Assembly: GCA_018819405.1 (NCBI GenBank) | Contig: JAHJQF010000001.1 | Location: forward strand, 577,377 to 641,376 | DNA length: 64,000 nucleotides | From: Patescibacteria group bacterium | GTDB lineage: Bacteria; Patescibacteriota; Patescibacteriia; UBA1558; GWA2-36-10 | Direction: 5' to 3' | Shown: in pieces, positions 21,341 to 62,149 of the stretch | Layout of the letters: each line of letters begins with the position of its first letter | Numbering within the stretch: position 1 is the stretch's first letter | Translations under genes and position numbers: made by a program | Notes under the pieces: model-generated | Databases searched by the model: none | Told to the model about the DNA's origin: nothing | What the model saw: only the letters and a program-made list of their open reading frames with translations

Positions 21341-21369
21341 TTGACAAAAATATAAAAATATGATATAAT
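21341..21369 (+). promoter_or_regulatory. consensus sigma70-type promoter (TTGACA-17-TATAAT)
   Basis: TTGACA at 21341-21346, a 17-nt spacer, then TATAAT at 21364-21369. It lies upstream of the GC-rich gene. Confidence 0.55.
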
Positions 21370-21446
21370 AGTATATTACTTTGAGGTGGAATGCGACTTG
21401 TTTTAAGTTGCTAGCTAGTGATAAGCCCAAGCAAGGAGAAGCTGCA

Positions 21447-22115
21447 ATGACTCGTCTGTTCAAACTCGTTGCCCTCATCGCCATGTCCCTTTCCATCTTC
21501 GCGCTGCCGGCTGCGGCTCAGTGGCAGCACAACATCAAGTGGTCAGACTCCTGGCACGCTCCGCGAGCCAGGATCCTGTTTCACAACAGCGAGGAAGTCT
21601 CGCCTGGGCTGGAGCGGCGTATCCATTGCTTGTTCCCCAACGTCAACCTCGAAGGTCGGCTCAACTTCCTGGCGTATCTGGGTCTCAACTTCAAATCGAT
21701 GTCACATCTGGATGTCGAGCCAGCTATTGGCTACAACCTGCGTCAGGAGACGATGATCACCTCCACGCGCTTCAGTCTGTATGACGGCCAGTCCATGGCC
21801 TACAGCCGGGCTTATGCTTGGCTGGATCTGGAATACACCCCCAATGGGCAGGGCACCTACTATTTTGCCCAGGCTGAGTACAGCGCTTTGGAGTATGTCG
21901 AATTCGGATTGGAGTCTGAAGGCTGGGGAGGCTTGGACGGCCAAAGCAAATCCATCGGTCTCGGTCCGAACTTGATCCTGCATTTCCGCCGTGGACCGCA
22001 CAACATCAACGTCGATCTGGCGGTCCATTACCGTGACCTCGATGACGTGCCGGACGCGGGCTGGAAGCCGGAGTTCTTCTTCCGGCTGCATCTGATCCCC
22101 AACTTGACAGATTAG
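21447..22115 (+). CDS. GC-rich foreign-looking secreted protein (signal peptide; beta-rich, aromatic-rich), hypothetical
   Basis: Canonical SD AAGGAG 8 nt before the ATG. Signal peptide LVALIAMSLSIFALPAAAQW. GC-rich with CTG/CCG/GCG-rich codon use unlike neighbours. Multiple spurious overlapping ORFs on both strands, typical of GC-rich DNA. Confidence 0.55.
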   Translation: MTRLFKLVALIAMSLSIFALPAAAQWQHNIKWSDSWHAPRARILFHNSEEVSPGLERRIHCLFPNVNLEGRLNFLAYLGLNFKSMSHLDVEPAIGYNLRQETMITSTRFSLYDGQSMAYSRAYAWLDLEYTPNGQGTYYFAQAEYSALEYVEFGLESEGWGGLDGQSKSIGLGPNLILHFRRGPHNINVDLAVHYRDLDDVPDAGWKPEFFFRLHLIPNLTD

Positions 22116-22122
22116 GCTGCTA

Positions 22123-22170
22123 GGCCCCGAAAAACGTGGTTTTTACCACCTTTCGGGGCCTATTTCTTTT
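22123..22170 (+). terminator. intrinsic terminator (GC-rich hairpin + T-tract)
   Basis: GGCCCCGAAA...TTTCGGGGCC followed by TATTTCTTTT. Confidence 0.7.
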
Positions 22171-22195
22171 GCCTTGACCCGTCGGGTAGGCGGAC

Positions 22196-22224
22196 TTGAC
22201 AATATTGCCATTATAATATATAAT
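22196..22224 (+). promoter_or_regulatory. consensus sigma70-type promoter (TTGACA-17-TATAAT) for rplJL
   Basis: TTGACA at 22196-22201, a 17-nt spacer, then TATAAT at 22219-22224. Confidence 0.6.
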
Positions 22225-22404
22225 TTTTTCATCAATTAAATATAGACCGTAGACAGTGGGTTTCGGATCATTTGGTCAGATATAAATCCTACCGAGGAAT
22301 AGCTTATTTTTTCATCGTCTGCGGTATATTGCGCAGATTTTTTTGTACCTGTCATCCTGAACTTGCTTCAGGATCTATCAGGAGGATTCTGAATTAAATT
22401 CAGA
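22225..22404 (+). promoter_or_regulatory. ribosomal protein L10 leader (structured 5' UTR of rplJL)
   Basis: Long leader with hairpins ATCCTGAACTTGCTTCAGGAT and ATTCTGAATTAAATTCAGAAT. Its position matches the known L10(L12)4 autoregulatory leader. Confidence 0.5.
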
Positions 22405-22944
22405 ATGACAATTAATATAAATTATATGCCAAAAACAAGACAACAAAAACAAGATATTTTGGACAATTTGAAAGATAAATTAGCCAAAAGTAAATCAGTA
22501 GTTTTTAGTTCTGACAACGGTCTATCTGTCAAAACCATTGAAGGCATCAGAAAAGAAATGAAGCAAAACAATGCTGAATATTTGGTAGCCAAAAAGACTT
22601 TGGTCAAAATGGCCACCGAAGATATATCAGATGTTAATTTGGACAGTTTGACCGGTTCGGTAGCTTTGACTATTTCTTATGAAGATGAAGTGGCCGGAGC
22701 CAGATTACTAAACAAATATGCCAAAGAAAATGAAGCCTTGCAGCTTGACGGTGGTATTTTGGAAGGTAAGTTCATCATGGCTGATATGGTCAAAAGATTA
22801 GCCAATTTGCCATCCAAAGAGCAATTACTAGCCAAATTGGTGGGGTCACTCAATTCTCCAATGGCCGGTATAGTAGGAGTACTATCTGGTGTACAGAGAA
22901 ATTTTGTTGGAGTTTTATCAGCTATTAAAGATCAAAAAGAATAA
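22405..22944 (+). CDS. rplJ: 50S ribosomal protein L10
   Basis: KQDILDNLKDKLAKSKSVVFSSDNGLSVKTIEGIRKEM...EYLVAKKTLVKMA is L10-like and is followed by rplL. The start may be the downstream MPKTRQQ (22426). Confidence 0.85.
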   Translation: MTININYMPKTRQQKQDILDNLKDKLAKSKSVVFSSDNGLSVKTIEGIRKEMKQNNAEYLVAKKTLVKMATEDISDVNLDSLTGSVALTISYEDEVAGARLLNKYAKENEALQLDGGILEGKFIMADMVKRLANLPSKEQLLAKLVGSLNSPMAGIVGVLSGVQRNFVGVLSAIKDQKE

Positions 22945-23041
22945 TTAATTTTATATATTTATAATTTTACCCCGTTAAATCCTGCTTCGCAGGAGCTCGC
23001 AAAGCGAGCTATTTAACAGGGGTGAAGAAAGGATAAAAAAT

Positions 23042-28755: not shown

Positions 28756-28855
28756 TATATAAAATAGCGATGAATCCCGTTAGAAATTCACAAAGTCATA
28801 ACGGGGATATATAAGTAAAATAATAAAAATAAATTTCACTATAATTTCTAACGGG

Positions 28856-32366: not shown

Positions 32367-32441
32367 GGCCCCATCGTCTAGCGGCTAGGACATCAGGTTC
32401 TCATCCTGACAACCGGAGTTCGATTCTCCGTGGGGTCACCA
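32367..32441 (+). tRNA. tRNA-Glu (anticodon CTC), CCA encoded
   Basis: Cloverleaf by eye: acceptor GGCCCCA/TGGGGTC, D-arm GTC-TAGCGGCTAG-GAC, anticodon loop TTCTCAT, T-arm CGGAG-TTCGATT-CTCCG. Confidence 0.8.
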
Positions 32442-32630: not shown

Positions 32631-32707
32631 GGGCATGTAGCTCAGTTGGTTAGAGCACTACATTCACATTGTAGGGGTCGAAGGTTCGAGTCCCTCCATG
32701 CCCACCA
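32631..32707 (+). tRNA. tRNA-Val (anticodon CAC), CCA encoded
   Basis: Acceptor GGGCATG/CATGCCC, D-arm GCTC-AGTTGGTTA-GAGC, anticodon stem CTACA/TGTAG with loop TTCACAT, T-loop TTCGAGT with one A-C mismatch in the T-stem. Confidence 0.7.
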
Positions 32708-33488: not shown

Positions 33489-33577
33489 TTTTTTATATAT
33501 TTTGTTGGGTTTGTTGTTGATGGAATTCCAGGTATAGGAGCTAGCCAGGTTTTTATAAAAGCCTGTTTTTTTGTAGC

Positions 33578-33618
33578 CAAAAAGAAAACCGCCGCGCGTT
33601 GCATGCAACGCGCGGCGG
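33578..33618 (-). terminator. intrinsic terminator of the GC-rich lipoprotein gene (perfect 30-bp palindrome + T-tract on minus strand)
   Basis: CCGCCGCGCGTTGCATGCAACGCGCGGCGG. On the minus strand it is followed by TTTTCTTTTT. Confidence 0.65.
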
Positions 33619-33635
33619 AAACAACAGACATAGGG

Positions 33636-34061
33636 CTAGTGCCCTTCCTTGTTCCAGTACTTGGTGTAGGCCCAGTCGAGGCGTTCGATCTTGGGGTTGG
33701 AAATGTCCTGGACTATCGTCGGTACACCGACGCGGATACGAACGAGCTCGCGGAGCTGTTCGCCGGTGTCGGGGTCGACACCGCCGTTGAGGTACAGGGT
33801 CGCTTTCTGCCGGATGAGCTCGTTGACCGAGCTTGCGGTCACGATGTCTTCGACGAAGTTGGGCTTGTCACCCTGGGGTTTGAAGTGGAAGACCACATGG
33901 CGCAGGTCCTTGAGCTCCGTCTTGGGGGGCTCGGGAACCTCCGAGTAGGGGTTGTCCTTGAGTTTGATGGTCACCTTCTCGGGCTTGGTGATGTCGCTCT
34001 TGGAGCAACCCACGGTCGAGATGGCAACCAGCAGGAGGAGGATGGTGGCGAACAGTTTCAT
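33636..34061 (-). CDS. GC-rich foreign-looking lipoprotein, hypothetical
   Basis: Lipobox-like signal LLLLVAISTVGC-SKS. Canonical SD GAAAGGA 8 nt upstream. GC-rich with an overlapping spurious plus-strand ORF. Confidence 0.5.
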   Translation of the reverse strand: MKLFATILLLLVAISTVGCSKSDITKPEKVTIKLKDNPYSEVPEPPKTELKDLRHVVFHFKPQGDKPNFVEDIVTASSVNELIRQKATLYLNGGVDPDTGEQLRELVRIRVGVPTIVQDISNPKIERLDWAYTKYWNKEGH

Positions 34062-34224
34062 GACGCGTCCTTTCGTCGGGTGTCAGTGACTTGACTAGCG
34101 AATTGTCTGTATATGTGAGTGCTTTTTGAGCACTTCTTTGGAAACGAACTTGCTTTGAGCAATCATATAATTATAGCATCTTTTATCTTTTTTGTCAATT
34201 TTATAGACTTAGACCCAATAATAG

Positions 34225-34281: not shown

Positions 34282-34596
34282 ATGAAAGCAATAATAAAAA
34301 CAGGTGGAAAACAATATTTAGTAGCCAAAGGAGATGTCCTTAAGATTGAAAAATTACCCAACGCCGAAGTCGGTAAACCAGTAGTTTTTGATCAAATTTT
34401 AGCTTTAGTTGATAAAGATCAGATTACTTTGGGAAAGCCAATGATAGCCAAAGCTAAGGTAGAAGCTACACTGCTCAAAAATCTCAAAGATAAAAAAGTA
34501 GATGTTACTAAATATAAAAATAAGACCAGATACAAAAGAGTAATTGGTCATCGCCACCAAAGAAGCGAAGTCAAGATTGATAATATAGTAGTTTAA
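34282..34596 (+). CDS. rplU: 50S ribosomal protein L21
   Basis: MKAIIKTGGKQYLVAKGDVLKIEKL N-terminus typical of bL21. Confidence 0.9.
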   Translation: MKAIIKTGGKQYLVAKGDVLKIEKLPNAEVGKPVVFDQILALVDKDQITLGKPMIAKAKVEATLLKNLKDKKVDVTKYKNKTRYKRVIGHRHQRSEVKIDNIVV

Positions 34597-34627
34597 TAAA
34601 AACCCCGCGCTCGCGGGGTTTTTTGTT
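34596..34627. terminator. bidirectional intrinsic terminator (rplU + / recR -)
   Basis: A-tract, then CCCCGCGCTCGCGGGG, then T-tract. Confidence 0.65.
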
Positions 34628-35223
34628 TAGATATTTTTTCTATTTTTTAGAGCCGAGGATAGAGTCACTTCATCGGTATATTCTATATTAGCACCCATTG
34701 GTATGCCTCGGGCCAGCTGGCTGATAGTGACAGGGTGGTCAGTCAATAATCGGGACAAATATATAGTTGTAGCTTCTCCTTCCATACTTTGATCAAGTGC
34801 TAGGATTATCTCTTTGACGCTATTTTTTTTAATACGATCCAAAAGCTCCTTTATTTTTATTTTTTCAGGAGTAATACCTTCTAAAGGACTTAATAATCCG
34901 TTTAGTAAATGATATACTCCAGGGAATTCTCCGGTTTTTTCTATAGCTTCGAGATCTTGATTACCACCCACCACACAGATAAGAGTTTTGTCTCTTTGGG
35001 GATTGGCACAAATATTACACAAGCCGTCATCAGTCAGATTTTGGCACTCGGGGCATAAATTTATATTTTGATAAGCCTGATATAAGGCATCAGCCATTTC
35101 TTTGATATCATCTTTTCTATGGAGTAGATTAAAAACTAACCTGGTGGAAGTTTTTGGTCCAATACCAGGCAGTTTGTCAAATTCAGCAATAAGCTTTTGG
35201 ATAAAATCGGGCAAATGTTGCAT
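34627..35223 (-). CDS. recR: recombination protein RecR
   Basis: LPGIGPKTSTRL HhH, C4 zinc finger CPECQNL...CNICANP, Toprim region VICVVGG. Confidence 0.9.
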   Translation of the reverse strand: MQHLPDFIQKLIAEFDKLPGIGPKTSTRLVFNLLHRKDDIKEMADALYQAYQNINLCPECQNLTDDGLCNICANPQRDKTLICVVGGNQDLEAIEKTGEFPGVYHLLNGLLSPLEGITPEKIKIKELLDRIKKNSVKEIILALDQSMEGEATTIYLSRLLTDHPVTISQLARGIPMGANIEYTDEVTLSSALKNRKNI

Positions 35224-35227
35224 GAAA

Positions 35228-35518
35228 TTATTTTAATAGGCTGTCTAGGCCACCCATTTCTTGCATTTTCATAGCCATTTTTCTTTGGACTTTTTTGATA
35301 GCATCGGAGATGGCATTGATAATTTCTTTTTCCAGCTCTGATTTTTTATCTTTACTTAGATACTCTTCTTTGATATCCAAAGATTTAATATCCTGATTAC
35401 CATCCATGGTTAATTTTACAGCGCGATTTTCCACTTCGACTGTTTCTTGAGCCATGGCACTTTTTAGAGTGCTAGCCTGTTTTCTTAGGTCGTTGTATTG
35501 TTTTAGTTTGTTAAACAT
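35228..35518 (-). CDS. ybaB: nucleoid-associated protein YbaB/EbfC
   Basis: 96 aa; KQASTLKSAMAQETVE...KLTMDGNQDIKSLDIKEEYL...MAMKMQEMGG pattern of the YbaB family, adjacent to recR as usual. Confidence 0.8.
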   Translation of the reverse strand: MFNKLKQYNDLRKQASTLKSAMAQETVEVENRAVKLTMDGNQDIKSLDIKEEYLSKDKKSELEKEIINAISDAIKKVQRKMAMKMQEMGGLDSLLK

Positions 35519-35639
35519 GAATTTAATTTTAATATTAAAATTTTATTTATTTTTTTATTCCCGACTAGTTCGGGAATCTAGCAAATTTTGCTGGATTTCC
35601 GGAGCAAGTCCGAAAATGACAAATAGTCTTTATAATTAA

Positions 35640-37103
35640 TTATGGTATGTTCTGCCAGCCCATATCAGATTGCTGGTCATTTTGTTTGTGGGAAGGTGAT
35701 TTGTTGTCAAAATTTGGGACTGGTATTTCATCGCCACTAGGAGTAGATATATCAGCTCCTTGATATTCTGTATCTAGATTTTTGAAGGAGACTTTGTTTT
35801 CATCAAAAAATAGTCTGCTCATACCAGTTGGACCATTTCTATGCTTATCAATATGAATCTCAGCGATGTGTCGTTCTTCCTCCGGACACTCACGGGATTT
35901 ATCTTTGGCTTTTCTGTAGATAAACATTACGATATCAGCATCCTGCTCAATAGACCCTGATTCTCTTAGGTCAGCTAGTTTTGGTATAGCTGGTGATCTA
36001 GCTTCTACCGCACGAGATAGCTGTGACAAGGCAAGTACCGGAATATCAAGTTCACGGGCAATTTGTTTCAAAGAACGAGAGATAGCTGATATTTCTTGGA
36101 CACGATTTTCAGTCTTGGTACTACCTTCCATAAGTTGTAGATAGTCAATCACCAAAAAACCTAGATTGTGTTCCATTTTTAGACGGCGAGCCTTGGTACG
36201 TATTTCCATAACATTGGCATTTGGAGAATCGTCAATAAATATTGGCGCTTCAGATAGTATGCCCATGGCTCGACCAATACGAGGGAAATCATCATCTTCT
36301 TCTCTGTCGGACAATTTGCCGGTACGCATTTTCCAAAGATCTACCTCAGCTTCAGCAGATAGCAGTCTGTCCACTAGTTGTTCTTTACTCATTTCCAGTG
36401 AAAATATACCGACAGGCACTCTGGCTCTGATAGCTACATTTCGGACCAAATCTAGAGCCAGAGTAGTTTTTCCCAGTGATGGCCTAGCAGCTAGTATTAT
36501 CAGATCAGAATTTTGAAAACCAGATAGTTTGTTGTCCAAATCACGGAAGCCAGTCGGGACACCTCTAGTACCTTTGCCGCCGGATTTGTGTAGTTCATCA
36601 ATACGATTGAAAGTATCGGTCAAAATATTTTTGATTGGTATAAAGTTTTTTTTGAGAGATTCTTGAGAAATAGCAAAAAGTTTTTGCTCAGCTTTGTCCA
36701 GCAATTTGGCTACATCTTCGTCTTGAGAAAAACTAAATTCAGATATTTCTGCCGCGGCTTGTTCTAGGCGACGCAGAGTGGATTTCTTTTGTATAATATC
36801 GGCGTATGATTCTACATGAGAAGAGTTGGGCACTGAAGCAGTCAGCTCGGCCAGATAGGCTTTACCACCAATACTCTCCAGTTGTTTTTTTTCATCCAAG
36901 CGGTTACCAACCGACAAGATATCAATTGGGTCATGTTTTTCAAATAAATCCAAAATAGCCTGATATATCAGACCATTACCATCTTTATAAAAATCAGTAG
37001 GACGCAAAGTATCACCAACTTTTATGACGGCCTCTTTATCTAGGAGTAAGGCTCCTAAAAGTGAGGATTCAGCTTCTAGATTTTGCGGGGGAATTTTGGT
37101 CAT
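35640..37103 (-). CDS. dnaB: replicative DNA helicase DnaB
   Basis: N-terminal PPQNLEAESSLLGALLLD, Walker A GARPSLGKTTLAL, RecA-like motifs LVIDYLQLM. Confidence 0.95.
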   Translation of the reverse strand: MTKIPPQNLEAESSLLGALLLDKEAVIKVGDTLRPTDFYKDGNGLIYQAILDLFEKHDPIDILSVGNRLDEKKQLESIGGKAYLAELTASVPNSSHVESYADIIQKKSTLRRLEQAAAEISEFSFSQDEDVAKLLDKAEQKLFAISQESLKKNFIPIKNILTDTFNRIDELHKSGGKGTRGVPTGFRDLDNKLSGFQNSDLIILAARPSLGKTTLALDLVRNVAIRARVPVGIFSLEMSKEQLVDRLLSAEAEVDLWKMRTGKLSDREEDDDFPRIGRAMGILSEAPIFIDDSPNANVMEIRTKARRLKMEHNLGFLVIDYLQLMEGSTKTENRVQEISAISRSLKQIARELDIPVLALSQLSRAVEARSPAIPKLADLRESGSIEQDADIVMFIYRKAKDKSRECPEEERHIAEIHIDKHRNGPTGMSRLFFDENKVSFKNLDTEYQGADISTPSGDEIPVPNFDNKSPSHKQNDQQSDMGWQNIP

Positions 37104-37238
37104 GCTTTTTTACTTGTAAAATCAGCTTACCTTATCTGGGCTTATTTTTCAAGGCTTATTTATTGACAATTTATAAACACCTTGAGTCAGCTCAGTGCGG
37201 GGTAAATAAAAAAACAGCCGATTGGCTGATATTATAAG

Positions 37239-37315
37239 TGGTGCGCCCAGTAGGATTCGAACCTACGACCGTCTGCTTAAAAGGCAGCTGCTCTACCAGG
37301 CTGAGCTATAGGCGC
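37239..37315 (-). tRNA. tRNA-Lys (anticodon TTT), CCA encoded
   Basis: Reverse complement folds as acceptor GCGCCTA/TGGGCGC (one G-U), D-arm GCTC-AGCCTGGTA-GAGC, anticodon loop CTTTTAA, T-arm GTAGG-TTCGAAT-CCTAC. Confidence 0.75.
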
Positions 37316-37484
37316 GTATGAAAATTGAAATTGATTGTAAATAAATACTAGAGAGCCTAATATCGCTAATTAGCGAAGCCTGGAAGGCTGCCTGCCCCGT
37401 AGCTTTAGCGTAGCGGGGAGCTTATAGGCGCAAAAGCAAAATTACGAGGCTTAGTATATGGTATTTTGGCTGTTTTGTCAATAT

Positions 37485-39296
37485 CTACATTTGCTCAGGT
37501 GCTTCAATTCCCAATAACTTTAGGCCTTTAGCCAAGGTCTCTTGGGTTAATAGAGAAATATTTAGCCTAATTTGTTTAGTATTATCATCTTCGGCATTTA
37601 AGACAGAGTGATGCTGATAAAAATTATTATAACTTTTGGCTAATTCAAAAAGATATTGATTGATCAGACTGGGATTATATTCTTTGGCACTTTTTAAAGT
37701 GATATGAGGAAATTGTAAGATAGTTTTGACCAGTTTTTTTTCTTCAGTATTAAAATGACTGGTTTCGAGGTTCTTTATTTTTTTTATTTGTCCGGATTTT
37801 TTTAGAATACTAGAAATTCTAGCATGGGTGTATTGTATAAAAGTACCAGTGTAACCGTCAAAAGAAATAGATTCACTTGGTTTAAATACTATATTCTTTT
37901 GCGGATTGGCAGAAAGCATAAAAAATTTGAGTGCTCCCAAGCCTACAATTTTAGCAATATTTTGTTTTTGATCATCGCTGGTTTCAACTTTTTTTTCAGC
38001 TTTGTTCATTACTTCTTTAGCAACATCAGTCATAGTAGCCATCAAATCATCAGCATCAGCTGTCTTGCCTTCGCGGGATTTTATTTTGCCGCCAGGTAGA
38101 GATACCATGCCATAGGAAAGATGATAAAGATTATCAGCCCATTTATAACCCAATTTTTCCAAGGTCAAAAATAATATCTTAAAATGGTAGTCTTGCTCAT
38201 TGGCAACTACATAAATACCCTGGTCAAATTTGAATTTTTTATATCTTTTGACGGCTGTACCCAAATCTTGAGTTAAATATACAGAAGTACCGTCAGCTCT
38301 TAGGAGGATTTTTTCGTCCAGTCCTTTTTTGGTCAAATCAATCCAAACAGAACCGTCATCTTTTTTGTAAAAGGTATTTTTCTTTAGGCCCTCTCCAACA
38401 ATTTGTTTGCCCAAAAGATAAGTATCACTTTCAAAATCCAGATGGTCAAACTCTACACCTAGATTTTTGTAGGTTTCTTCATAGCCAATATAAACCCAAT
38501 CATTCATCATTTTCCACAAGCGTCTGACATCTGGGTCATTGTTTTCCCAAGCAATCAGCATAGCATGAGCTTTTTTCATCCACTGGGAATGATTCAAAAA
38601 TTCTTCTTCAGCTTTTTTTCTCTCTAGATTTGGTAGTTTAGCCAAATCAATATTTTTTTTCTTAAAATATTTGTCTTGTTCTTCTTTTAAAACTTGGCCG
38701 AATTTTACATAATATTTTCCCACTAGGTGGTCGCCTTTCATATTGCTCGTTTCAGGTGTTTCACCATCTGCAAATTCTTGCCAGGCCAACATGCTTTTTA
38801 CTATATGTATACCTCGGTCATTTATAATATTTACAGCAATAGTTTTGTAGCCATTAGCTTTGAATATACTTATTAGGCTTTGGCCAATACAGGCATTTCT
38901 GACATGTCCGACATGTTGAGGCTTGTTGGTGTTTGGTCCAGAAAATTCTATCAGTACTTTTTGGCCTTTTCCGATTTTGTTTTGCCCAAATTTTTTATTG
39001 TCAGCTATTTCTTCCAGTGATTTTTTGACAAAATGTCGGTTTACAAAAATATTGAGATACGGACCAATGTTTTTTATTTCTTTTATTAATTCATTTTTAA
39101 CAAATGATTTGGCTAGTTGACTAGCTATGTCATTTGGTTTTTTTTTGCTTTTAGTGGCCAGCTCAAAACAAGCAAAGGCATAATCACCTAGTTTGTCTTC
39201 GGGCGGTAAATCCAAATCAAAATCATCCAATTCTATAGATAATATTGACCGGACATTTTCTTTTATATTTTCTTTTATCTGTTCTAAGGCAGTCAT
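37485..39296 (-). CDS. argS: arginine--tRNA ligase
   Basis: Class I HIGH motif PNTNKPQHVGHVRN, Add-1 N-terminal domain, DALR anticodon-binding C-terminus. Confidence 0.9.
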   Translation of the reverse strand: MTALEQIKENIKENVRSILSIELDDFDLDLPPEDKLGDYAFACFELATKSKKKPNDIASQLAKSFVKNELIKEIKNIGPYLNIFVNRHFVKKSLEEIADNKKFGQNKIGKGQKVLIEFSGPNTNKPQHVGHVRNACIGQSLISIFKANGYKTIAVNIINDRGIHIVKSMLAWQEFADGETPETSNMKGDHLVGKYYVKFGQVLKEEQDKYFKKKNIDLAKLPNLERKKAEEEFLNHSQWMKKAHAMLIAWENNDPDVRRLWKMMNDWVYIGYEETYKNLGVEFDHLDFESDTYLLGKQIVGEGLKKNTFYKKDDGSVWIDLTKKGLDEKILLRADGTSVYLTQDLGTAVKRYKKFKFDQGIYVVANEQDYHFKILFLTLEKLGYKWADNLYHLSYGMVSLPGGKIKSREGKTADADDLMATMTDVAKEVMNKAEKKVETSDDQKQNIAKIVGLGALKFFMLSANPQKNIVFKPSESISFDGYTGTFIQYTHARISSILKKSGQIKKIKNLETSHFNTEEKKLVKTILQFPHITLKSAKEYNPSLINQYLFELAKSYNNFYQHHSVLNAEDDNTKQIRLNISLLTQETLAKGLKLLGIEAPEQM

Positions 39297-39490
39297 ATGT
39301 TTACCCTGTTAAATAATATTTAAGCATACTTAAATATTAAATTCAAATTTCTTCTTATTTTGTTTATTAGTTTTTTAGCTTATTATATTCTTCTATTATT
39401 TGAATTTATTATATCAAAACTTGAATTTATTTAACAGGGTAATTTCAATAAAATTCAAGCGTGGTCATATTTATTATTTGTCTATATTTA

Positions 39491-39499
39491 TGTTATAAT
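39491..39499 (+). promoter_or_regulatory. extended -10 (TGtTATAAT) placed for a leaderless P-type ATPase transcript
   Basis: TGTTATAAT ends 6 nt before the ATG at 39506, putting the predicted TSS at the start codon. Confidence 0.45.
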
Positions 39500-39505
39500 A
39501 TAGGC

Positions 39506-42178
39506 ATGTCTGAAAAAGAAATAGCTTGGCATAGTTTGAGTTCAGCCCAAGTTTTGAAAAATCTAGACTCTAGTGAAAAGGGCTTGAGTTCCCAAGAAGC
39601 AAAAAAACGTCTAACAAAATATGGTTTTAATTTATTGGCAAAATCCAAGCATTTTTCTGCTGGGGCTTTATTTTTCTCACAATTTAAAAGTGCTTTAGTT
39701 TATGTTTTGATAATAGCGGGATTTATTTCTTTGTTTTTTGGTGAATATATAGATTCGTATGTTATTTTTTTGGCGGTTATCATAAATGTTATTGTTGGTT
39801 TTATTCAAGAATTCAAAGCCAATAAATCATTGGAAAAATTAAATGAAGTGGTCAAGCAAGAAACAATAGTTTTTAGAGATGGGCAGGAGCTAAAAATAGA
39901 ATCTCATAATATTGTAGTGGGGGATATTATAATTCTTGAATCAGGTAACCGTGTGCCAGCTGATGCACGTTTGATTTTAGCAAATGATTTGGAGGTAGAT
40001 GAGGCTACTCTTACCGGAGAATCTTGGCCGGTGAAAAAAAAATTGAACTCTATTGATATAGGTACTGTATTGGCCGAGAGGACAAATATGGTTTTTATGG
40101 GGACCTTGGTCGTTGAAGGTAGGGCTAAGGCAGTGGTAGTAAATACTGGTTTTACTACTGAAATGGGCAAGATTACTGTGTTGTTGAAAGAAACAGAGGA
40201 TGAAAAAACACCTTTACAGGAAAGATTAGACAATTTTGCCAGAAGTATTACCAAAATAATAGTTGTTATTGCTATTTTTTTGTTTATTTTTGGGATATTA
40301 AAAGGTCAGGAATGGTCTCATATGTTTACATTGGCGGTAGCCGTGGCCGTATCGGCAATTCCAGAAGGATTGATAATAGGTATGACTATGATTCTAACTG
40401 TAGGTATGCAGAGAATCCTAAAACACAATGGTTTGGTCAGGCGTCTGATTTCAGCTGAGACACTGGGATCAACGACTGTGATTTGTACAGATAAAACTGG
40501 CACCCTAACCGAAGGCGAAATGAGAGTGACTAGTATAATTACCAGCAGCCACCGTTTTGATTTGTCTACCGGCTCATTAAAAGATATTCTCTCAAAAACT
40601 GAAATTGATATTTTGGAAAAAATTTCTTTTTTGTGTAATGATAGCTCAATACAAAATATAGATCAGGCAGCTGACGATTGGTCTATTATTGGCAGTCCAA
40701 CTGAAAAAGCGTTAATTATATTTAGTGCAAACAATAGTAATGTCAGAAATTTGAGCAAAGAGCATCCGCGAGTTCAAGAAATACCTTTTGATTCTGGTAG
40801 AAAGTTTATGATTACCCGTCATCATTTTGATACTAAGCGTGATATCATATTTATCAAAGGAGCACCGGAAAAGATATTGTCTTTTTCAGATTTTTATCAA
40901 AATGATAAAAAAGTTACCAAAATTTCAAGTTCGCTAAAGAAGCGTTTTGATGAAGATTGGCAGAATTTGAGCAAAGAGGGGCTTAGGGTTTTGGCTGGAG
41001 CATATAGATTGGTACCTAAGGATTTTAAAGATTTTGAAAAATGTAAAGATAATCCTAATAATTTTATTTTTGTAGGTATTTGGGGTCTGTCTGATCCACT
41101 GAGGCCCGAGGCCAAAGAAACTTTACAAAAAACTTTGGCGGCTGGTATTAATACGGTGATAATTACTGGTGACAACAAATTTACAGCCAAAAGTATTGCC
41201 AAGGAACTCGGATTACCAGTCAGCGATAATAGTATTGTCACAGGTGACGAGCTACTTCAAATGACGGATGGAGAATTAAGCAAAAGAATTAGAGATATCA
41301 AACTTTATGCTAGGGTCACTCCAGCTGATAAATTGAGGATTATCAAAGCCTGGCAGAGTAAAGGTGAGGTAGTTTCTATGACTGGCGACGGAGTCAACGA
41401 TGCGCCAGCTCTTAAGGCAGCTGATACAGGTGTGGCTGTATCAAGCGGTTCTGATATAGCCAAAGAAACCGCGGATTTAGTGCTTTTGGATAATAATTTT
41501 TCCACCATAGTAATGGCAGTCAAACAGGGTAGAGTTATTTTTTCAAATCTCAAAAAACTTATATTATATCTTTTGTCAGATGCATTTTCAGAGGTTATAT
41601 TAATTACCGGTAGTTTTATATTGGGTATGCCTTTGCCTATTTTGGCTGCTCAGATATTGTGGGTAAACTTGGTTGACGATGGTTTTCCAGCTCTGGCTTT
41701 AACCATGGAGCCGGAAGAAGAGGAAATCATGAACAAAAAACCGGATAGAGGCAGCTCTTTATTAGATTTTGAAAGCAAATTTATTATTATGATGATCAGT
41801 TTTTTGACTGGTAGTGCTAGCTTGTTGATATTTTGGTTTATTTCTCAAAATACACATGATGAGGATTTAGCTAGGACAGTTACTTTTACTTTTTTGGCAA
41901 TTAGTACTTTGTGCTATGTATTTTCTATTAAGAGCCTGGAAAATAATATTTTTAGGTCTCATCCTTTTAATAATAAATATTTAAATGGAGCTGTTTTCAT
42001 AGGACTGATTACTCAATTGGCAGCTGTTTATCTTCCTTTTTTTAATAAGTTTTTAAGGACAAAACCAATAGGCTTTTATGAGTGGCAGGTTATTATTTTA
42101 TCTATCTTATTTTTGATAGTTTTAATAGAAATATCAAAGTTCATATTTATCAAATATAATAGAAAGTTTTCAAAATAA
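39506..42178 (+). CDS. P2-type cation-transporting P-type ATPase (Ca2+/Mg2+-ATPase-like)
   Basis: DKTGTLTEGEM phosphorylation site, PEGL, TGDGVNDAPALKAADTGVAV hinge, 10 TM pattern. Start taken at MSEKEIAW (39506), not the track start at 39461. Confidence 0.9.
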   Translation: MSEKEIAWHSLSSAQVLKNLDSSEKGLSSQEAKKRLTKYGFNLLAKSKHFSAGALFFSQFKSALVYVLIIAGFISLFFGEYIDSYVIFLAVIINVIVGFIQEFKANKSLEKLNEVVKQETIVFRDGQELKIESHNIVVGDIIILESGNRVPADARLILANDLEVDEATLTGESWPVKKKLNSIDIGTVLAERTNMVFMGTLVVEGRAKAVVVNTGFTTEMGKITVLLKETEDEKTPLQERLDNFARSITKIIVVIAIFLFIFGILKGQEWSHMFTLAVAVAVSAIPEGLIIGMTMILTVGMQRILKHNGLVRRLISAETLGSTTVICTDKTGTLTEGEMRVTSIITSSHRFDLSTGSLKDILSKTEIDILEKISFLCNDSSIQNIDQAADDWSIIGSPTEKALIIFSANNSNVRNLSKEHPRVQEIPFDSGRKFMITRHHFDTKRDIIFIKGAPEKILSFSDFYQNDKKVTKISSSLKKRFDEDWQNLSKEGLRVLAGAYRLVPKDFKDFEKCKDNPNNFIFVGIWGLSDPLRPEAKETLQKTLAAGINTVIITGDNKFTAKSIAKELGLPVSDNSIVTGDELLQMTDGELSKRIRDIKLYARVTPADKLRIIKAWQSKGEVVSMTGDGVNDAPALKAADTGVAVSSGSDIAKETADLVLLDNNFSTIVMAVKQGRVIFSNLKKLILYLLSDAFSEVILITGSFILGMPLPILAAQILWVNLVDDGFPALALTMEPEEEEIMNKKPDRGSSLLDFESKFIIMMISFLTGSASLLIFWFISQNTHDEDLARTVTFTFLAISTLCYVFSIKSLENNIFRSHPFNNKYLNGAVFIGLITQLAAVYLPFFNKFLRTKPIGFYEWQVIILSILFLIVLIEISKFIFIKYNRKFSK

Positions 42179-43126: not shown

Positions 43127-43170
43127 CCCCGTCGGAAGTGCCAAACACTTCCGACGGGGATATTTTTTTA
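43127..43170 (+). terminator. intrinsic terminator (15-bp stem + T-tract)
   Basis: TCCCCGTCGGAAGTG-CCAAA-CACTTCCGACGGGGA followed by TATTTTTTTA. Confidence 0.75.
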
Positions 43171-50876: not shown

Positions 50877-50936
50877 ATTACAGATTTTAAATACCCCACA
50901 ACAGTCCTTACCCACCAGCTTAAGGAGGTGATTTAG

Positions 50937-51191
50937 ATGAGTCAGGGTAGTATCGACAGGGAAGGAGCCTTCATCGACATCACAGTGCCTGTCGAATTTG
51001 CCCAGGAAATTCGTGACCGACTAAGTCAGTGCGAGTCTTACACTCTTGATCAAAACAATTGTCATCAGGATCAGGAGGTGGCGCACATACGCATAATCCT
51101 CAAGGTCATGTCCAGAGGGGCATGTTACCAGAAGATCAAGGAGATCGGTCAAGAATTAGGGATTTCTGTCTTGGACAAGACAGCAGGCTGA
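50937..51191 (+). CDS. GC-rich foreign-looking small protein (84 aa), hypothetical
   Basis: Canonical SD AAGGAGG 9 nt upstream of the ATG. GC-rich, CTG/CGC-rich codons. Followed by a strong hairpin terminator. Confidence 0.45.
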   Translation: MSQGSIDREGAFIDITVPVEFAQEIRDRLSQCESYTLDQNNCHQDQEVAHIRIILKVMSRGACYQKIKEIGQELGISVLDKTAG

Positions 51192-51237
51192 AAAAAATTC
51201 CCCGCGAAGCGAAGCTTCGCGGGGAATAATTTTTTTT
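51192..51237. terminator. bidirectional intrinsic terminator
   Basis: AAAAAAATT-CCCCGCGAAGC-GAA-GCTTCGCGGGG-AATAATTTTTTTT, between convergent genes. Confidence 0.7.
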
Positions 51238-57900: not shown

Positions 57901-58184
57901 ATATTGAAGAAAAAAATATGACGCCACTTGAAGCAGTGGCTGATGCTGGGGATACAAGACTTCAACCTATTTTGTTGACTACCATTACTACTATTATGGG
58001 TGTAATACCCTTGGCCTTTGCCAATGAATTTTGGGTAGGACTGTCTATTTCTATAATTTTTGGTTTGGCTTTTGCTACTGTCATACAGCTATTTGTCATA
58101 CCAATGCTTTTTGTCAGATTTGAAGGCAAGAAAAAAAATAAGAAAGACAAGGCAGATATTCCTGAAGTACAATATTCTAAATAA
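54987..58184 (+). CDS. RND (HAE family, AcrB-like) efflux transporter permease
   Basis: 1065 aa; 12-TM pattern with two large periplasmic loops. LVDDAIVV-type motif at VDAFIVVLEGI, conserved GLAFATVIQLFVIPMLF C-terminus. Confidence 0.85.
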   Translation: MNENNIENKKDEAKNKFAHQAIIRTRKSFKGYFITHFRVIILMISAIVIMGALALASIPRESDPEVKIPIAVVTTVYPGASPADVENLVTDEIENRLEELDNVKLITSASRNSISSITVEFEAEANLDDSIRELKDKVGEVTGLPGDAEDPVVTQIRANDYPIITFSLSGDLTDNQFKQLGEIVQDELEGISGVSKVPLLGVRDKEFSVLVDKTALSRLNLSLSTIVGAIRASNLDMPLGNIDIDDLHYNIRSVGKLNDIDNLKNVVVANNNGQIVLLKDIAQVNEQFVDRSNISRISIAGETTQENISLQIYKKTGGNILDIVDSAKAKVNMLSDEKVIPDNVKIEINSDYSSFIRDDLHTLGSSGIQATILIFIIMFIALSFKEAIIALLAIPLSLLITIIALYFSGYTLNSMSLYALVLSLGLLVDAFIVVLEGIFHNIREGYSSKDAALLSVAHYSGPVTSGMLTTVAAFFPMLLVSGILGEYLKIFPITIGITLTASLFVSLILVPSFASIFLKKSQFVGTAKESILEKYVTNKLRRLYRKNITIFLRSKKSKFRFSIILTILFVASLGLLVTQTIPVQLFPKMDADFAYVDIKMPIGTNLETTSQLVSQIEEKLYKYPEIKNFVSTIGQSSSIGSFDPSRSSEHLANISIDFVDKKERSKKSYDIVDSIREDIKTINEGDISITELSGGPPTGSPIEARISGEDLLVLDSISNKVKNILENTEGVINVSSNQDLSPADLTFTLNKETVAKSGLTVADVSNLLRTAIFGVTATEISQDNNDLDVVVKLDKNKIDSVEQIKNLSLINNYGQEVKLSYLADFSLEPALATIRHRDFERTISVSADLASGYTAAKVVPGIEELVAQENIAHGYRVDFGGEVEDIQQSFTELWNAMIVAVILILIILVLEFDSFIRTGIILMSLPLMLIGVVVGMGIFGLPFSFMVFLGLVSLAGIGVNDAIVLMDKTKRNIEEKNMTPLEAVADAGDTRLQPILLTTITTIMGVIPLAFANEFWVGLSISIIFGLAFATVIQLFVIPMLFVRFEGKKKNKKDKADIPEVQYSK

Positions 58185-58221
58185 AAAAGAAAAGCCGCCC
58201 CAGTATTATGCCGGGGCGGCA
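58184..58221 (-). terminator. intrinsic terminator for the minus-strand GC-rich membrane gene
   Basis: GCCGCCCCAGTATTATGCCGGGGCGGC with a T-tract on the minus strand (plus-strand AAAAAGAAAA). Confidence 0.6.
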
Positions 58222-58261
58222 GGTGAGCAGTTGTGACTTGCTCAGGTCTGATGCCGGAGGA

Positions 58262-58864
58262 CTAACCTCTGGTTTTTTGGTTGAAGCGTAGTCTGGTTAC
58301 AGCTATCGCTATAGTACCCTGTAGCAGGATCAGCCAGATGCCGGTGATCAGGTGCCCGTCGAGCAGGCTGCAAAAAGTAGCAGTGACGGCCAATGCCCAG
58401 GCCAAGAGGTCTTCTTGTTTTTTTTCCACAAGGACCTTTTTGAGGATGGGTAAGGAGGCAGCACTGATACCCGCCAAGGCGCAAGCAGTAGCAGCCAGAG
58501 GGCCGACAGACAAGTAGAGGGCAATAGATATGCCCACAAATATACTGCAGCCTGTTTCCAGCTTTGACCAAGTGGCGTATCCGTATTTCAGGGTGAAAAG
58601 GGCTACAGCCAGTGTGCCAATATTATACTCAATCATCATCGGGTCAAGGATGCCATTACTGAGCTGGCTGCCCAGAATGACAACGTCGAGCGCCATGTAT
58701 AGAAACCAAGACGAGCGAGGAGGCGGTGGCAGTGTACCCTTGACCATGGCCACGATAAAGCGCAAATGCACTATCGCGGAAAAGACAAAGGATAGTAGGC
58801 CAAAGAGCCTTACTTCGATAGGATAGCCCCGAAGGGCCGTGTCTATCACGACAGGATTCCACAT
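58262..58864 (-). CDS. GC-rich foreign-looking integral membrane protein (about 5 TM), hypothetical
   Basis: Canonical SD GGAGGG 8 nt upstream. GC-rich with overlapping spurious ORFs on both strands. A TTGACA-18-TATATT promoter lies at plus 58914-58942 on the minus strand. Confidence 0.5.
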   Translation of the reverse strand: MWNPVVIDTALRGYPIEVRLFGLLSFVFSAIVHLRFIVAMVKGTLPPPPRSSWFLYMALDVVILGSQLSNGILDPMMIEYNIGTLAVALFTLKYGYATWSKLETGCSIFVGISIALYLSVGPLAATACALAGISAASLPILKKVLVEKKQEDLLAWALAVTATFCSLLDGHLITGIWLILLQGTIAIAVTRLRFNQKTRG

Positions 58865-59012
58865 ATTGTAGACCCTCCAGGGTTTGGGTGTTGTCAGTGA
58901 ACTTTAACTTTGTAATATACAATATATTGTCTATTTTGTCAATATTATATAATTAATACCTTGTAAAATCTTTGTATTTTAGCTATTATTTAATAAGCTA
59001 ATTTTTTTATTT

Positions 59013-60302: not shown

Positions 60303-60311
60303 TCGGCTTTT

Positions 60312-60387
60312 GCCGAGATAGCTCAGTTGGTAGAGCAGCGGTATCGTAAACCGCGGGTCGCAGGTTCGACTCCTGTTCTCGGCTCCA
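60312..60387 (+). tRNA. tRNA-Thr (anticodon CGT), CCA encoded
   Basis: Acceptor GCCGAGA/TCTCGGC, D-arm GCTC-AGTTGGTA-GAGC, anticodon stem GCGGT/ACCGC with loop ATCGTAA, T-arm GCAGG-TTCGACT-CCTGT. Confidence 0.8.
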
Positions 60388-60414
60388 TTATTTTTTAAAT
60401 AAGTAAATAAAAAT

Positions 60415-61830
60415 ATGCAAAGAAGCAAAACTATTGAAACAGTTGGAAAAATAGGTGAAAATGTCCAGCTCTTTGGTTGGGTCAATGTCCGCCGTAATAT
60501 GGGTAAAATTGTCTTTCTTGATTTGCGAGATCGTTGGGGCATACTACAAGTAGTAGTTGTACCATCTGAGCTAGATAAAGACTCTGAAGAAATTTTGGCT
60601 AATATTAGACCTGAATATGTTTTATCTATTCAAGGTTTGGTTCAAAGTAGAGGAGCTAAACAGATTAATAAAGATTTGCCAACTGGTATGGTGGAAGTTT
60701 TGGCCAAAAAGATAAATATATTGTCCAGTGCCGAGACACCGCCTTTTGAAATAGACAATGAAGAACGTCAGGCCAATGAAGAATTGAGACTCAAATATAG
60801 ATATCTTGATTTGAGACACGAGCGCATGAAAAAAAATATCTTAGTCAGAGACAAGGTTTTTGCCTATTTACGTAATTATTTGCATGACAATGATTTTATT
60901 GAAATTCAGACTCCTATACTTTCCAAATCAACTCCGGAAGGAGCTAGAGATTATTTAGTACCGAGTCGTTTGCATAAGGGCAAATTTTTTGCTTTGCCAC
61001 AAGCCCCACAGCAATACAAGCAGCTACTCATGGTGGCTGGTATGGAAAAATATTTTCAGATTGCTCCATGTTTTCGTGATGAAGATGCCAGAGCTGATAG
61101 AAGCCCAGGTGAATTTTATCAACTAGATATGGAAATGTCTTTTGTCAAACAAGAAGATATTCTTAATCTGGTAGAGAGTATGTTTACTGCCATGGTAGAG
61201 GAGATATTTCCAGAAAAGAAAATGACTTTTAGTCCTTGGCCACGATTAAACTACAGTGAAGTAATGGAAAAATATGGCTCTGATAAGCCAGATTTGAGAA
61301 AAGACAAAAATGATCCAAATGAATTGGCTTTTGCCTGGGTAGTAAATTTTCCACTATTTATGCCACAGACTGATGAAGACAGATTTGTCGGCGCCGGGGA
61401 CACTTGGGGCCCGGCTCACAATATGTTTACAGCACCCAAAGAAGAAGATGTTGCTTTGCTAGATTCTGATCCAGGCAAAGTCAGATCATACCAACATGAT
61501 TTGGTACTCAACGGTTTTGAAGTAGGTGGGGGAGCAGTTCGTATTCATGATATGAAAATTCAGGAAAAAGTCTGGGATTTGATTGGTTTTACAGATAAAC
61601 AAAAAGAACAATTTAGACACTATTTTGAAGCATTCAAATATGGTGTCCCACCACATGGTGGTATTGCGCCTGGTTTGGAAAGACTTTTGATGGTACTCTT
61701 GGGTGAAAAAAACCTCAAAGAAGTAACAGCCTTTCCTTTGACTTCAGATGGGCGGGATCCGATGATGGAGTCTCCATCAGAAGTAGACAAGTCTCAACTT
61801 GATGAACTTGGTCTAGAATTGAAGAGATAA
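60415..61830 (+). CDS. aspS: aspartate--tRNA ligase, short form lacking the GAD insertion
   Basis: LRLKYRYLDLR, motif 2 FRDEDARADRSPGEFYQLDMEMSF, motif 3 GGIAPGLERLLMVLLG. 471 aa. Confidence 0.85.
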   Translation: MQRSKTIETVGKIGENVQLFGWVNVRRNMGKIVFLDLRDRWGILQVVVVPSELDKDSEEILANIRPEYVLSIQGLVQSRGAKQINKDLPTGMVEVLAKKINILSSAETPPFEIDNEERQANEELRLKYRYLDLRHERMKKNILVRDKVFAYLRNYLHDNDFIEIQTPILSKSTPEGARDYLVPSRLHKGKFFALPQAPQQYKQLLMVAGMEKYFQIAPCFRDEDARADRSPGEFYQLDMEMSFVKQEDILNLVESMFTAMVEEIFPEKKMTFSPWPRLNYSEVMEKYGSDKPDLRKDKNDPNELAFAWVVNFPLFMPQTDEDRFVGAGDTWGPAHNMFTAPKEEDVALLDSDPGKVRSYQHDLVLNGFEVGGGAVRIHDMKIQEKVWDLIGFTDKQKEQFRHYFEAFKYGVPPHGGIAPGLERLLMVLLGEKNLKEVTAFPLTSDGRDPMMESPSEVDKSQLDELGLELKR

Positions 61831-61873
61831 TTTTAAAATATAGATAAAATTAATATATTGTCCTCAACTCGTA

Positions 61874-61949
61874 AGTCCCCGCCAAAGAGCTATGCCTCAG
61901 CAATCTACCAGACTGGAGAGCTCTTTGGCGGGGACTCTTTCTTTTTTTT
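61874..61949 (+). terminator. intrinsic terminator of aspS (18-bp stem, large loop, T-tract)
   Basis: AGTCCCCGCCAAAGAGCT...AGCTCTTTGGCGGGGACT followed by CTTTCTTTTTTTT. Confidence 0.7.
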
Positions 61950-61976
61950 GACAAAATCAATTTTTTATATTATAAT
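61948..61976 (+). promoter_or_regulatory. perfect consensus sigma70-type promoter (TTGACA-17-TATAAT) driving a non-coding GC-rich segment
   Basis: TTGACA at 61948-61953, a 17-nt spacer, then TATAAT at 61971-61976. Confidence 0.6.
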
Positions 61977-61983
61977 TCTCAAG

Positions 61984-62149
61984 AATTCAGTTCCTATTCA
62001 TTTCATCGCATCATGCTGCAGAGTTGGATCCCCAGCTCCAATCCTGACGGCATGGCCGTCGTACTAGAAGCGTGCTCCACAAGAGTATTTCGAGACGCCT
62101 CTTACGATGGCACCCAGGGGTTCGGCAATCGTCGAACCCCTCTTTTTTT
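61984..62149 (+). ncRNA. candidate small RNA (about 165 nt, GC-rich, structured) of unknown family
   Basis: Bounded by the consensus promoter and an intrinsic terminator AGGGGTTCG-GCAAT-CGTCGAACCCCT-CTTTTTTT (62115-62149). No plausible ORF: the only long frame runs through the terminator stem and lacks an SD. Internal hairpins GACGGC-ATG-GCCGTC and GCGTGCTC...GAGACGC. Confidence 0.45.

Follow-up and report, generated by a model that had tools for sequence, protein, structure and literature searches.

GC-rich, Shine–Dalgarno-led single-gene islets in the AT-rich chromosome of a Patescibacterium and its relatives

Bacterial genes that depart in composition or expression signals from their surroundings have been described in several settings. 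Horizontally acquired islets have atypical GC content and codon use and different translation signals, lie between conserved operons, and show some presence/absence variation. Phage morons carry their own promoter and terminator, deviate in GC content, sit between unrelated operons and provide accessory functions, and integron cassettes are compact units with a single open reading frame (ORF), a hairpin at the end and likewise accessory functions. In the Bacteroidia, Shine–Dalgarno (SD) sequences are depleted genome-wide, the ribosome is SD-blind, and the rare gene that does carry a strong SD is specially regulated (PMC9976891, PMC7797042, PMC13000453); in Flavobacterium johnsoniae there is a single strong-SD gene, rpsU, with no compositional distinction (PMC13000453), and Parcubacteria subgroups often have no detectable anti-SD (PMC9297842). 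Here we describe six GC-rich islets, I1 to I6, in 64,000 nucleotides (nt) of the chromosome of a Patescibacteria group bacterium (contig JAHJQF010000001.1, positions 577,377 to 641,376; hereafter the window), five of which encode one protein each and the sixth a candidate small RNA.

The islets share the traits listed above for horizontally acquired islets, morons and integron cassettes, and differ from all of these systems. They differ from horizontally acquired islets in being single genes for which we found no mobility genes, repeats or donor, in being syntenic over deep divergence, and in showing none of the amelioration that such genes undergo with time, despite turnover of synonymous sites. 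Unlike morons, they lie in a cellular chromosome among housekeeping genes, with no phage genes nearby, and are conserved by descent. Their hairpins are perfect GC stems followed by T runs, with no shared core, and are not attC sites; unlike integron cassettes they are scattered rather than arrayed, there is no integrase in the window, and most have a promoter of their own. The depletion of SD sequences together with a strong-SD minority, as in the Bacteroidia, suggests a separate initiation regime, but in contrast to F. johnsoniae many accessory genes are SD-led and this is coupled to GC enrichment of the whole transcript. The searchable literature yielded no account of such GC-rich, SD-led islets for Patescibacteria, and as far as we have checked the combination of single-gene units, vertical inheritance in fixed slots, equilibrium composition and a clade-wide link to SD sequences appears to be new.

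We conclude that the islets are old, inherited parts of this lineage and not recent foreign insertions. The explanation that we favour, tentatively and at somewhat less than even confidence, is that they belong to a class, present throughout the clade, of genes and small RNAs that are self-contained and evolve fast, with GC-rich, structured, SD-dependent mRNAs kept by selection. A rival that we consider unlikely, if serious, is ancient or recurrent transfer from GC-richer, SD-using and probably diderm donors (for example the hosts of the symbiont), early in the clade and with occasional replacement, the foreign composition persisting through purifying selection, slow amelioration or repeated re-introduction. 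The evidence that follows bears on both.

Sliding windows of 200 nt (mean GC 36.0% across the window, standard deviation 6.4 points) reveal blocks of at least 48% GC at 21401–22200 (56%), 33501–34150 (55%, peak 62%), 42251–43200 (52%) and 58151–58900 (51%), which contain I1, I2, I3 and I5 respectively, and a weaker block at I4 (50901–51150, 49%). I6 (61850–62149) reaches at most 45% in 300-nt windows, with a core at 62015–62141 of 58%. An earlier note on this DNA had listed six GC-rich islets; four of these are strong (51–59% GC), whereas I4 and I6 are only mildly GC-rich (45–49%). The only other blocks of at least 48% GC are two tRNAs (32.35–32.70 kb) and one 200-nt window at 13.45 kb, and the first 21 kb of the window contain no GC islet.

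Long ORFs overlap on both strands of every block, as had been remarked previously, and the real frames were picked by the order of GC content at third, first and second codon positions (GC3>GC1>GC2), which places the coding frames of I2 and I5 on the minus strand. The islet coding sequences (CDSs) have a GC content of 0.48–0.59 compared with 0.36 for the window, and a GC3 of 0.55–0.85 compared with 0.29 in native genes; GC1, GC2 and GC3 are 0.56, 0.39 and 0.68 in islets and 0.45, 0.32 and 0.29 in native genes. The described shift to CTG-, CCG- and GCG-type codons holds for both codon and amino-acid composition, with CTG/CTC, CCC/CCG, GTC, AAG and CAG used in islets and TTA/TTG, CCA, GTA, AAA and CAA in native genes. 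A change-point fit shows that each coding GC block starts 23–43 nt 5′ of the ATG, just taking in the SD, and ends at the terminator, so that the promoters lie outside the block in AT-rich DNA. GC blocks whose edges fall precisely on SD and terminator, as they do at these five loci, are not what random insertion predicts, and this counts against transfer. The parts of the islets, in window coordinates and with lengths of products in amino acids (aa), are:

21341–21369, plus strand: I1 promoter, TTGACA-17-TATAAT (12/12), TG-extended, in AT-rich DNA, conserved in the sibling genome L082
21433–21438, plus strand: I1 SD, AAGGAG, 8 nt 5′ of the ATG; the GC block runs from about 21424
21447–22115, plus strand: I1 CDS, 222 aa, signal peptide and 12-stranded outer-membrane-type β-barrel; GC 0.57, GC3 0.74
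22122–22170, plus strand: I1 intrinsic terminator, nested GC hairpin with T-rich tail
22196–22224: promoter of the L10 gene, beginning where the I1 block ends (22195)
33589–33618, minus strand: I2 terminator, 13-bp stem (11 GC pairs) and T run; edge of the GC block at 33588
33636–34061, minus strand: I2 CDS, 141 aa, lipoprotein-like (signal peptide, ...TVGC); GC 0.59, GC3 0.85
34068–34074, minus strand: I2 SD, GAAAGGA
34170–34198, minus strand: I2 promoter, TTGACA-17-TATAAT (12/12), TG-extended, followed by a 5′ untranslated region (UTR) of about 95 nt
42188–42216, plus strand: I3 candidate promoter, −35 TTGACA perfect, −10 TAAACA weak, from direct reading; it does not satisfy the −10 rule of the scan
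42282–42288, plus strand: I3 SD, AAAGGAG
42297–43118, plus strand: I3 CDS, 273 aa, weak helix-turn-helix matches and a K/R-rich tail; GC 0.54, GC3 0.64
43125–43170, plus strand: I3 terminator, 16-bp stem (10 GC pairs) and T run
43370–43445: tRNA-Asn, 3′ of I3
50922–50929, plus strand: I4 SD, AAGGAGGT
50937–51191, plus strand: I4 CDS, 84 aa, of a small, conserved family of 77–143-aa proteins; GC 0.48, GC3 0.55
51197–51227, both strands: I4 bidirectional terminator, 14-bp stem (9 GC pairs), which also serves a convergent 483-aa gene
58194–58220, minus strand: I5 terminator, 10-bp stem with 9 GC pairs
58262–58864, minus strand: I5 CDS, 200 aa, membrane protein with seven transmembrane helices; GC 0.51, GC3 0.58
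58873–58878, minus strand: I5 SD, GGAGGG
58914–58942, minus strand: I5 promoter, TTGACA-17-TATATT (11/12)
61949–61977, plus strand: I6 promoter, TTGACA-17-TATAAT, from direct reading
61984–62150, plus strand: I6 small-RNA candidate, about 167 nt, no SD-led ORF; minimum free energy −65.1 kcal/mol, z −5.5
62117–62143, plus strand: I6 terminator hairpin and T run

The islets have expression signals that set them apart from the native genes. All five coding islets have an SD of at least 5 nt located 7–9 nt 5′ of the ATG (AAGGAG, GAAAGGA, AAAGGAG, AAGGAGGT and GGAGGG for I1 to I5 respectively), whereas even a weak 4–6-nt SD match is present in only 6 of 49 native genes; both had been claimed before and both are borne out. 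A strong SD in an SD-poor genome is a point in favour of transfer. Many native genes start about 10–19 nt past a −10 box, which makes their mRNAs near-leaderless or leaderless. The islet hairpin terminators, with stems of 10–16 bp and 9–11 GC pairs, are the strongest in the region, and the location of the islets at operon boundaries is supported. The islet promoters were absent from the earlier note: the sigma-70 promoters of I1, I2, I5 and I6 match the consensus at 11–12 of 12 positions (perfect TTGACA-17-TATAAT in I1, I2 and I6, 11/12 in I5) and lie in AT-rich DNA outside the GC block. Each islet is a self-contained unit comprising a resident-type sigma-70 promoter, a 5′UTR, a GC block and a strong terminator; no promoter of its own was seen for I4, which is probably co-transcribed with a 170-aa gene.

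The native starts show a further regularity. An exact 10-mer, TTCTAACGGG, occurs five times in the window, at 11846–11855, 16273–16282, 20249–20258 and 28846–28855 on the plus strand and at 28776–28785 on the minus strand, and four of the copies abut a native start codon behind a −10-like box, in the arrangement TA(A/T)AAT-TTCTAACGGG-ATG. The gene at 18396 has the variant TTTTAACGAG in its place. The pattern suggests that near-leaderless mRNAs have a conserved core-promoter and start element.

The products of I1 and I5 resemble envelope and transport proteins in fold and not in sequence. The I1 protein has a signal peptide and the fold of a KdgM/NanC-like 12-stranded transmembrane β-barrel, although neither it nor 40 members of its family match Pfam and I1 has no profile match in the PDB. 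I5 had been taken for a protein with five transmembrane helices; its predicted structure (pLDDT 96.6) has seven, in the 3+1+3 arrangement of the PQ-loop/SWEET/KDEL-receptor fold, and matches cystinosin, the KDEL receptor and SWEET at a probability of 1.0 with TM-scores of 0.55–0.59. The PQ-loop/MtN3 models of Pfam match none of 40 I5-family members, and there is no PDB profile match. There is thus no sequence-level similarity of I1 to KdgM/NanC porins or of I5 to PQ-loop/SWEET transporters. Patescibacteria are presumed to have no outer membrane, and the outer-membrane-type barrel of I1 is the reason that ancient transfer from outer-membrane-bearing donors stays a rival. The I2 and I3 proteins are identical to MBU1203011.1 and MBU1203018.1, respectively, of a Patescibacteria group bacterium with KKH39_ locus tags.

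I6 has its own promoter and terminator, a stable fold (z −5.5) and no SD-led ORF, in keeping with its earlier designation as a non-coding RNA candidate, and has no Rfam match above noise. None of the elements in the corresponding slot of relatives can be aligned with it, and an alignment of the elements from this slot gave no consensus structure. The second aminoacyl-tRNA synthetase gene (aaRS2), upstream of I6, ends in an unusually long terminator hairpin (61858–61945, 17-bp stem, loop of about 30 nt), and this hairpin adds to the GC signal of I6.

To place the islets among other genomes we used an exhaustive HMMER scan, which found 238 homologs covering all five islet proteins, every one an unnamed metagenome protein; twenty sampled family members all belong to tiny clusters found only in metagenomes. 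Every homolog context inspected is Patescibacteria-like and SD-poor, and among the 238 homologs and these contexts there is none in a named genome or a GC-rich genome outside the Patescibacteria. The five families have no match in Pfam, NCBIfam or PHROGs, or in the PDB by sequence; viral-contig scans with I1, I3 and I5 gave no match, and a metagenome-contig scan with a four-sequence I1-family profile gave no confirmed relative. The higher-GC donor proposed in the earlier note therefore finds no support here, and the lack of any homolog or family match beyond tiny metagenome-only clusters counts against transfer in general. A word-indexed search with the five proteins concatenated as query returned zero hits, missing even the 100% matches later found by HMMER, and one with an I1-family profile returned only 4 proteins, so that the lack of a hit in such a search is not evidence for an orphan. 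Look-ups of the exact sequences of I1, I2, L21 and L10 likewise gave nothing, either because the recorded gene calls are different or because the record is missing from the index.

In other genomes, homologs of I1 to I4 are found in the corresponding syntenic slots at protein identities as low as 27–30%, and homologs of all five families have a GC content above that of their neighbours and have kept the SD. The closest comparison is with the sibling L082 (72–80% nt identity), which has an I1 ortholog between YceG and L10 with a protein 72.5% identical; it has a GC content of 0.57 and a GC3 of 0.75, compared with a GC3 of 0.27–0.34 in its neighbours, and its promoter, 5′UTR and terminator are conserved, with intergenic flanks 82–84% identical. 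Distant I1-family members (27–28% identity) in two more SD-poor genomes have an SD and the highest or near-highest GC content among their neighbours. The I2 homolog in L091 (30% identity) is divergent from L21 and adjoins RecR and YbaB, with a GC3 of 0.76 compared with 0.25 in L21 and an SD at the true internal start. Homologs of I3 follow the same P-type ATPase in L088 (L087/L088, 27%), or precede the same tRNA and ABC transporter in L006 (28%), with a GC3 of 0.71 (L088) and 0.60 (L006) against SD-less flanks at 0.24–0.28, and the L087/L088 copy has the SD caaggagg. An I4 homolog (P0030, 48%), on a 118-kb Joint Genome Institute (JGI) contig, follows the same hydrogenase and 170-aa gene.

At some slots, units have been gained or lost. 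The I4 slot is empty in L087 and L007, and the I5 slot is empty in the close relative L007, while I5 homologs (43–46%) stand at other positions (L083), again GC-elevated and SD-led. This variation in I4 and I5 is consistent with transfer, as is variation in the content of the slot between aaRS2 and ScpA among close relatives. The orthology of junctions, promoters and terminators between species and the filling of the same slots at 27–30% protein identity count against it, and together with the elevated GC content and SD of the homologs they leave the recent, independent acquisition that the earlier note had inferred without support. The copies in sibling and relatives are GC-elevated, and not at the native low GC that would have refuted the note. 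Native proteins are 55–82% identical in the same genome comparisons, and the islet proteins therefore evolve several times faster.

The link between GC content and SD extends beyond these families. We surveyed 51 AT-rich loci, in which a simple method called 861 ORF-genes. SDs of 5 nt or more precede 4–5% of genes near background GC, 24% of genes 5–10 GC points above it and 38% of those more than 10 points above it (odds ratio 10, p = 9e-8), and this is so even though the last class includes mis-stranded and RNA-derived ORFs. Secreted and membrane proteins are not significantly enriched among the GC-rich SD-led genes across loci (0.38 compared with 0.30, p = 0.54). Self-contained single-gene units thus make up a class of genes met with repeatedly in the clade, and the further GC-elevated genes found in relatives indicate that the class is larger than the families in the window. 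These are small genes at 944–1246 and 2748–2984 in L091, 524–1225 and 3036–3479 in L083, and 9341–9568 and 9655–9858 in L004, most of them led by an SD-like sequence in AT-richer surroundings; they encode a phasin-like 100-aa protein and ORFs of 67–233 aa.

The slot of I6, between aaRS2 and ScpA, can be as short as 12 bp or as long as 2.9 kb in relatives, a variability that points to a hot spot for inserted units, and relatives have other promoter-RNA-terminator units in it. Three of these, of about 300 nt, are GC-rich, non-coding and mutually alignable, with promoter and terminator (L009 13900–14300, L011 3820–4160 and L014 13300–13642). GC-rich segments with no convincing coding ORF also occur at 4151–4550 in L009 and 4226–4650 in L014, and at 9451–9875 in both. 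None of these GC-rich non-coding units belongs to an Rfam family, which makes them unannotated RNAs of the clade.

We then asked how the composition of I1 is maintained, using the window and L082. I1 has a nonsynonymous divergence (dN) of 0.187 and a synonymous divergence (dS) of 1.15 by the NG86 method, giving a dN/dS of 0.16, and is a functional gene under purifying selection; native genes in the same comparison have a dS of 2.0–3.2. The GC3 of about 0.75 has been kept despite this divergence, with no amelioration toward the host. The four-fold sites of native genes are near saturation (identity 0.38 compared with 0.28 for random, 450 sites), and under an F81 model about 37% of the ancestral state is kept per lineage, so that an ancestor with 75% or 100% GC at four-fold sites is expected neutrally to be at 0.50 to 0.59 now. 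Islet 1 is at 0.72 in both genomes, against this expectation of at most 0.59. More than one round of replacement at its synonymous sites has left the GC content intact, which indicates a maintained equilibrium and not the leftover of a recent transfer. A GC3 that stays the same at a dS above 1 contradicts passive retention, and a reading of the islets as passive foreign composition finds no support. Synonymous replacement in I1 proceeds at about 0.4–0.5 of the native rate, around a GC-rich equilibrium, and the equilibria of 0.72 and 0.36 imply a bias of about ln(4.6) = 1.5 scaled units (4Nes) at four-fold sites. A synonymous divergence below that of native genes could reflect a later shared origin, as transfer would allow; since the identity of the I1 protein is not above that of its flanks, a more recent shared origin is unlikely.

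Islet transcripts are also more structured than their composition requires. Compared with dinucleotide shuffles they have a mean z of −1.31 (37 windows, p = 2e-8), whereas the native mean is −0.44 (islet versus native, Mann-Whitney p = 9e-5). In relatives, for coding regions only, the values are −1.24 for islets and −0.55 for native genes (p = 0.04), with some exceptions.

These observations are consistent with the following scheme, which is our favoured one. The bulk of genes would be translated with no SD, from leaderless or AU-rich unstructured starts, and the islet genes would constitute a second regime of GC-rich, highly structured mRNAs that can be started only via SD pairing. An SD-bound ribosome would shield the 5′ side of such an mRNA and the strong hairpin its 3′ side, making it stable. 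RNA-level selection of about 1.5 (4Nes) at four-fold sites would hold the GC content against AT-biased mutation pressure, and weakly constrained islet protein sequences would drift to GC-rich codons. The products may serve as envelope, uptake and regulatory accessories of a symbiont: a porin-like barrel, a lipoprotein, a PQ-loop-type transporter, a helix-turn-helix protein and a small RNA. We infer that RNA-level selection for stable, end-protected, SD-started mRNAs is the most likely cause of the composition.

Several points weigh against this scheme. The stability and discreteness of the islet mRNAs and their SD-led translation are deduced from sequence. The synonymous-site argument comes from one orthologous pair and 67 four-fold sites, and our view of how the families are distributed comes from some ten contexts and from metagenome proteins that are unnamed. 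The structure excess is uneven: z is close to 0 or even positive for some islets of relatives, and the L10-L12 operon, a native one, shows as much structure as the islets do. Neither a 16S 3′ end nor rpsU was found in the window or the comparison loci, and should the 16S lack an anti-SD, the SD motifs could not function in the way suggested here. The scheme leaves unexplained why these particular genes need such mRNAs. Finally, the shift in GC1, GC2 and amino-acid composition, affecting the gene as a whole, fits a foreign origin, and the I1 barrel and I2 lipoprotein look like diderm proteins, which also fits it.

As the origin of some units, ancient transfer thus has to be taken seriously, but alone it does not explain the persistence of their composition. 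As to how units might have inserted, the window contains no flanking repeats, target-site duplications or attC-like sites, the repeat search giving promoter look-alikes only, and no integrase or transposase was present among the window genes sampled with Pfam, as the earlier note had said; a tRNA-Asn lies about 250 nt 3′ of I3, but no repeat is found there. Integron and transposon mechanisms were rejected because of the outcome of the repeat search, and a phage or moron origin because PHROG and NCBIfam scans with all five proteins and viral-contig scans with I1, I3 and I5 were negative; in addition, housekeeping genes surround the islets.

A variant of the selective explanation that we regard as quite unlikely is that there are two expression regimes split by composition, in which the GC-rich SD set would encode interface proteins and be read only when the anti-SD is free, as a ribosome-state switch, with the porin perhaps inserted into a diderm host. 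GC-biased gene conversion is somewhat less probable again. Here, fast-evolving accessory genes would recombine with the DNA of relatives and GC-biased repair would enrich GC locally, and such a process could account for the GC-rich synonymous equilibrium with its reduced apparent rate, the fast protein evolution and slot turnover, and the extension of the effect to UTR and terminator sequence. Conversion tracts need homologous flanks and should blur outward, whereas the steps are sharp at SD and terminator and the flanks have a GC3 of 0.27–0.34; conversion also leaves unexplained the SD, the strong terminators and the structure excess beyond composition. A GC3 shift from 0.3 to 0.75 is, to our knowledge, far above anything reported for bacteria. 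We consider GC-biased conversion less likely than RNA-level selection. The most extreme form of the two-regime variant, which would trace the host-like signals to cassettes or mRNAs that act inside the host, is very improbable.

The least probable explanation, at a level we consider negligible, is a chimeric assembly, bin contamination or engineered insertion, which has nothing in its favour except the sharp compositional contrast itself. For islets 1 and 3 it is refuted. The 9129 bp of a Logan single-run assembly (SRR6514730) agree at 100% with window positions 34288–43416, a stretch that takes in islet 3 and both its junctions, and islet 1 is unchanged on a separate 847-kb JGI contig. Contigs of more than 1 Mb have identical junctions, other species hold orthologous islets at the same sites, with orthologous I1 junctions in one of them, and islet expression is driven by conserved promoters of native type. 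The islets genuinely belong to the chromosome of a Parcubacteria-type Patescibacterium, the KKH39_ metagenome-assembled genome (MAG) with its contig of about 1.04 Mb. Its AsnRS is 74–81% identical to those of Parcubacteria, Komeilibacteria and Nomurabacteria MAGs, and the native genes of the window include those for L10, L7/L12, L21, aminoacyl-tRNA synthetases, DnaB, RecR, an RND pump, a P-type ATPase and an RHS toxin.

If the composition is held by selection, as we favour, the islets would be a clear bacterial case of gene-scale GC content as an adaptive trait rather than a mutational or historical by-product, and would point to a second regime of translation or mRNA stability in the Candidate Phyla Radiation, the ribosomes of which are already known as unusual. 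Scanning for GC content plus SD would offer a simple route to lineage-specific interface genes, such as those for porin-like barrels, lipoproteins, transporters, regulators and small RNAs, in thousands of uncultured genomes. Conversely, compositional detectors of horizontal transfer and contamination filters will wrongly flag or drop such native genes. An outer-membrane-type barrel family in a presumed monoderm phylum is also a lead on how episymbionts tap their hosts.

Four other features of the window were observed. The genome, of about 1 Mb and AT-rich, has kept tRNA-Glu(CTC) at 32367–32441, tRNA-Val(CAC) at 32631–32707 and tRNA-Thr(CGT) at 60312–60387, which read G-ending codons that are rare in native genes and common in islets (GAG 56% in islets and 25% in native genes, AAG 73% and 19%), and these tRNAs may be linked to decoding of the GC-rich gene class. 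Opposite tRNA-Val, the segment 32669–32797 on the minus strand matches the Rfam model of the Helicobacter antisense RNA HPnc0260 (63 bits, threshold 59), a hit that is probably spurious and due to tRNA antisense. Between the L10 promoter and the start of rplJ there is a long leader (22225–22400) with a terminator-like hairpin at 22317–22338; it is 84% identical in the sibling L082 (3610–3831), receives no Rfam call at the gathering score, and is probably an autoregulatory element of the L10-leader type. Within 3264–10221 a gene encodes a 2170-aa RHS/SpvB/FG-GAP toxin-like protein and is directly followed by a 147-aa ORF (9778–10221), which is a possible immunity gene.

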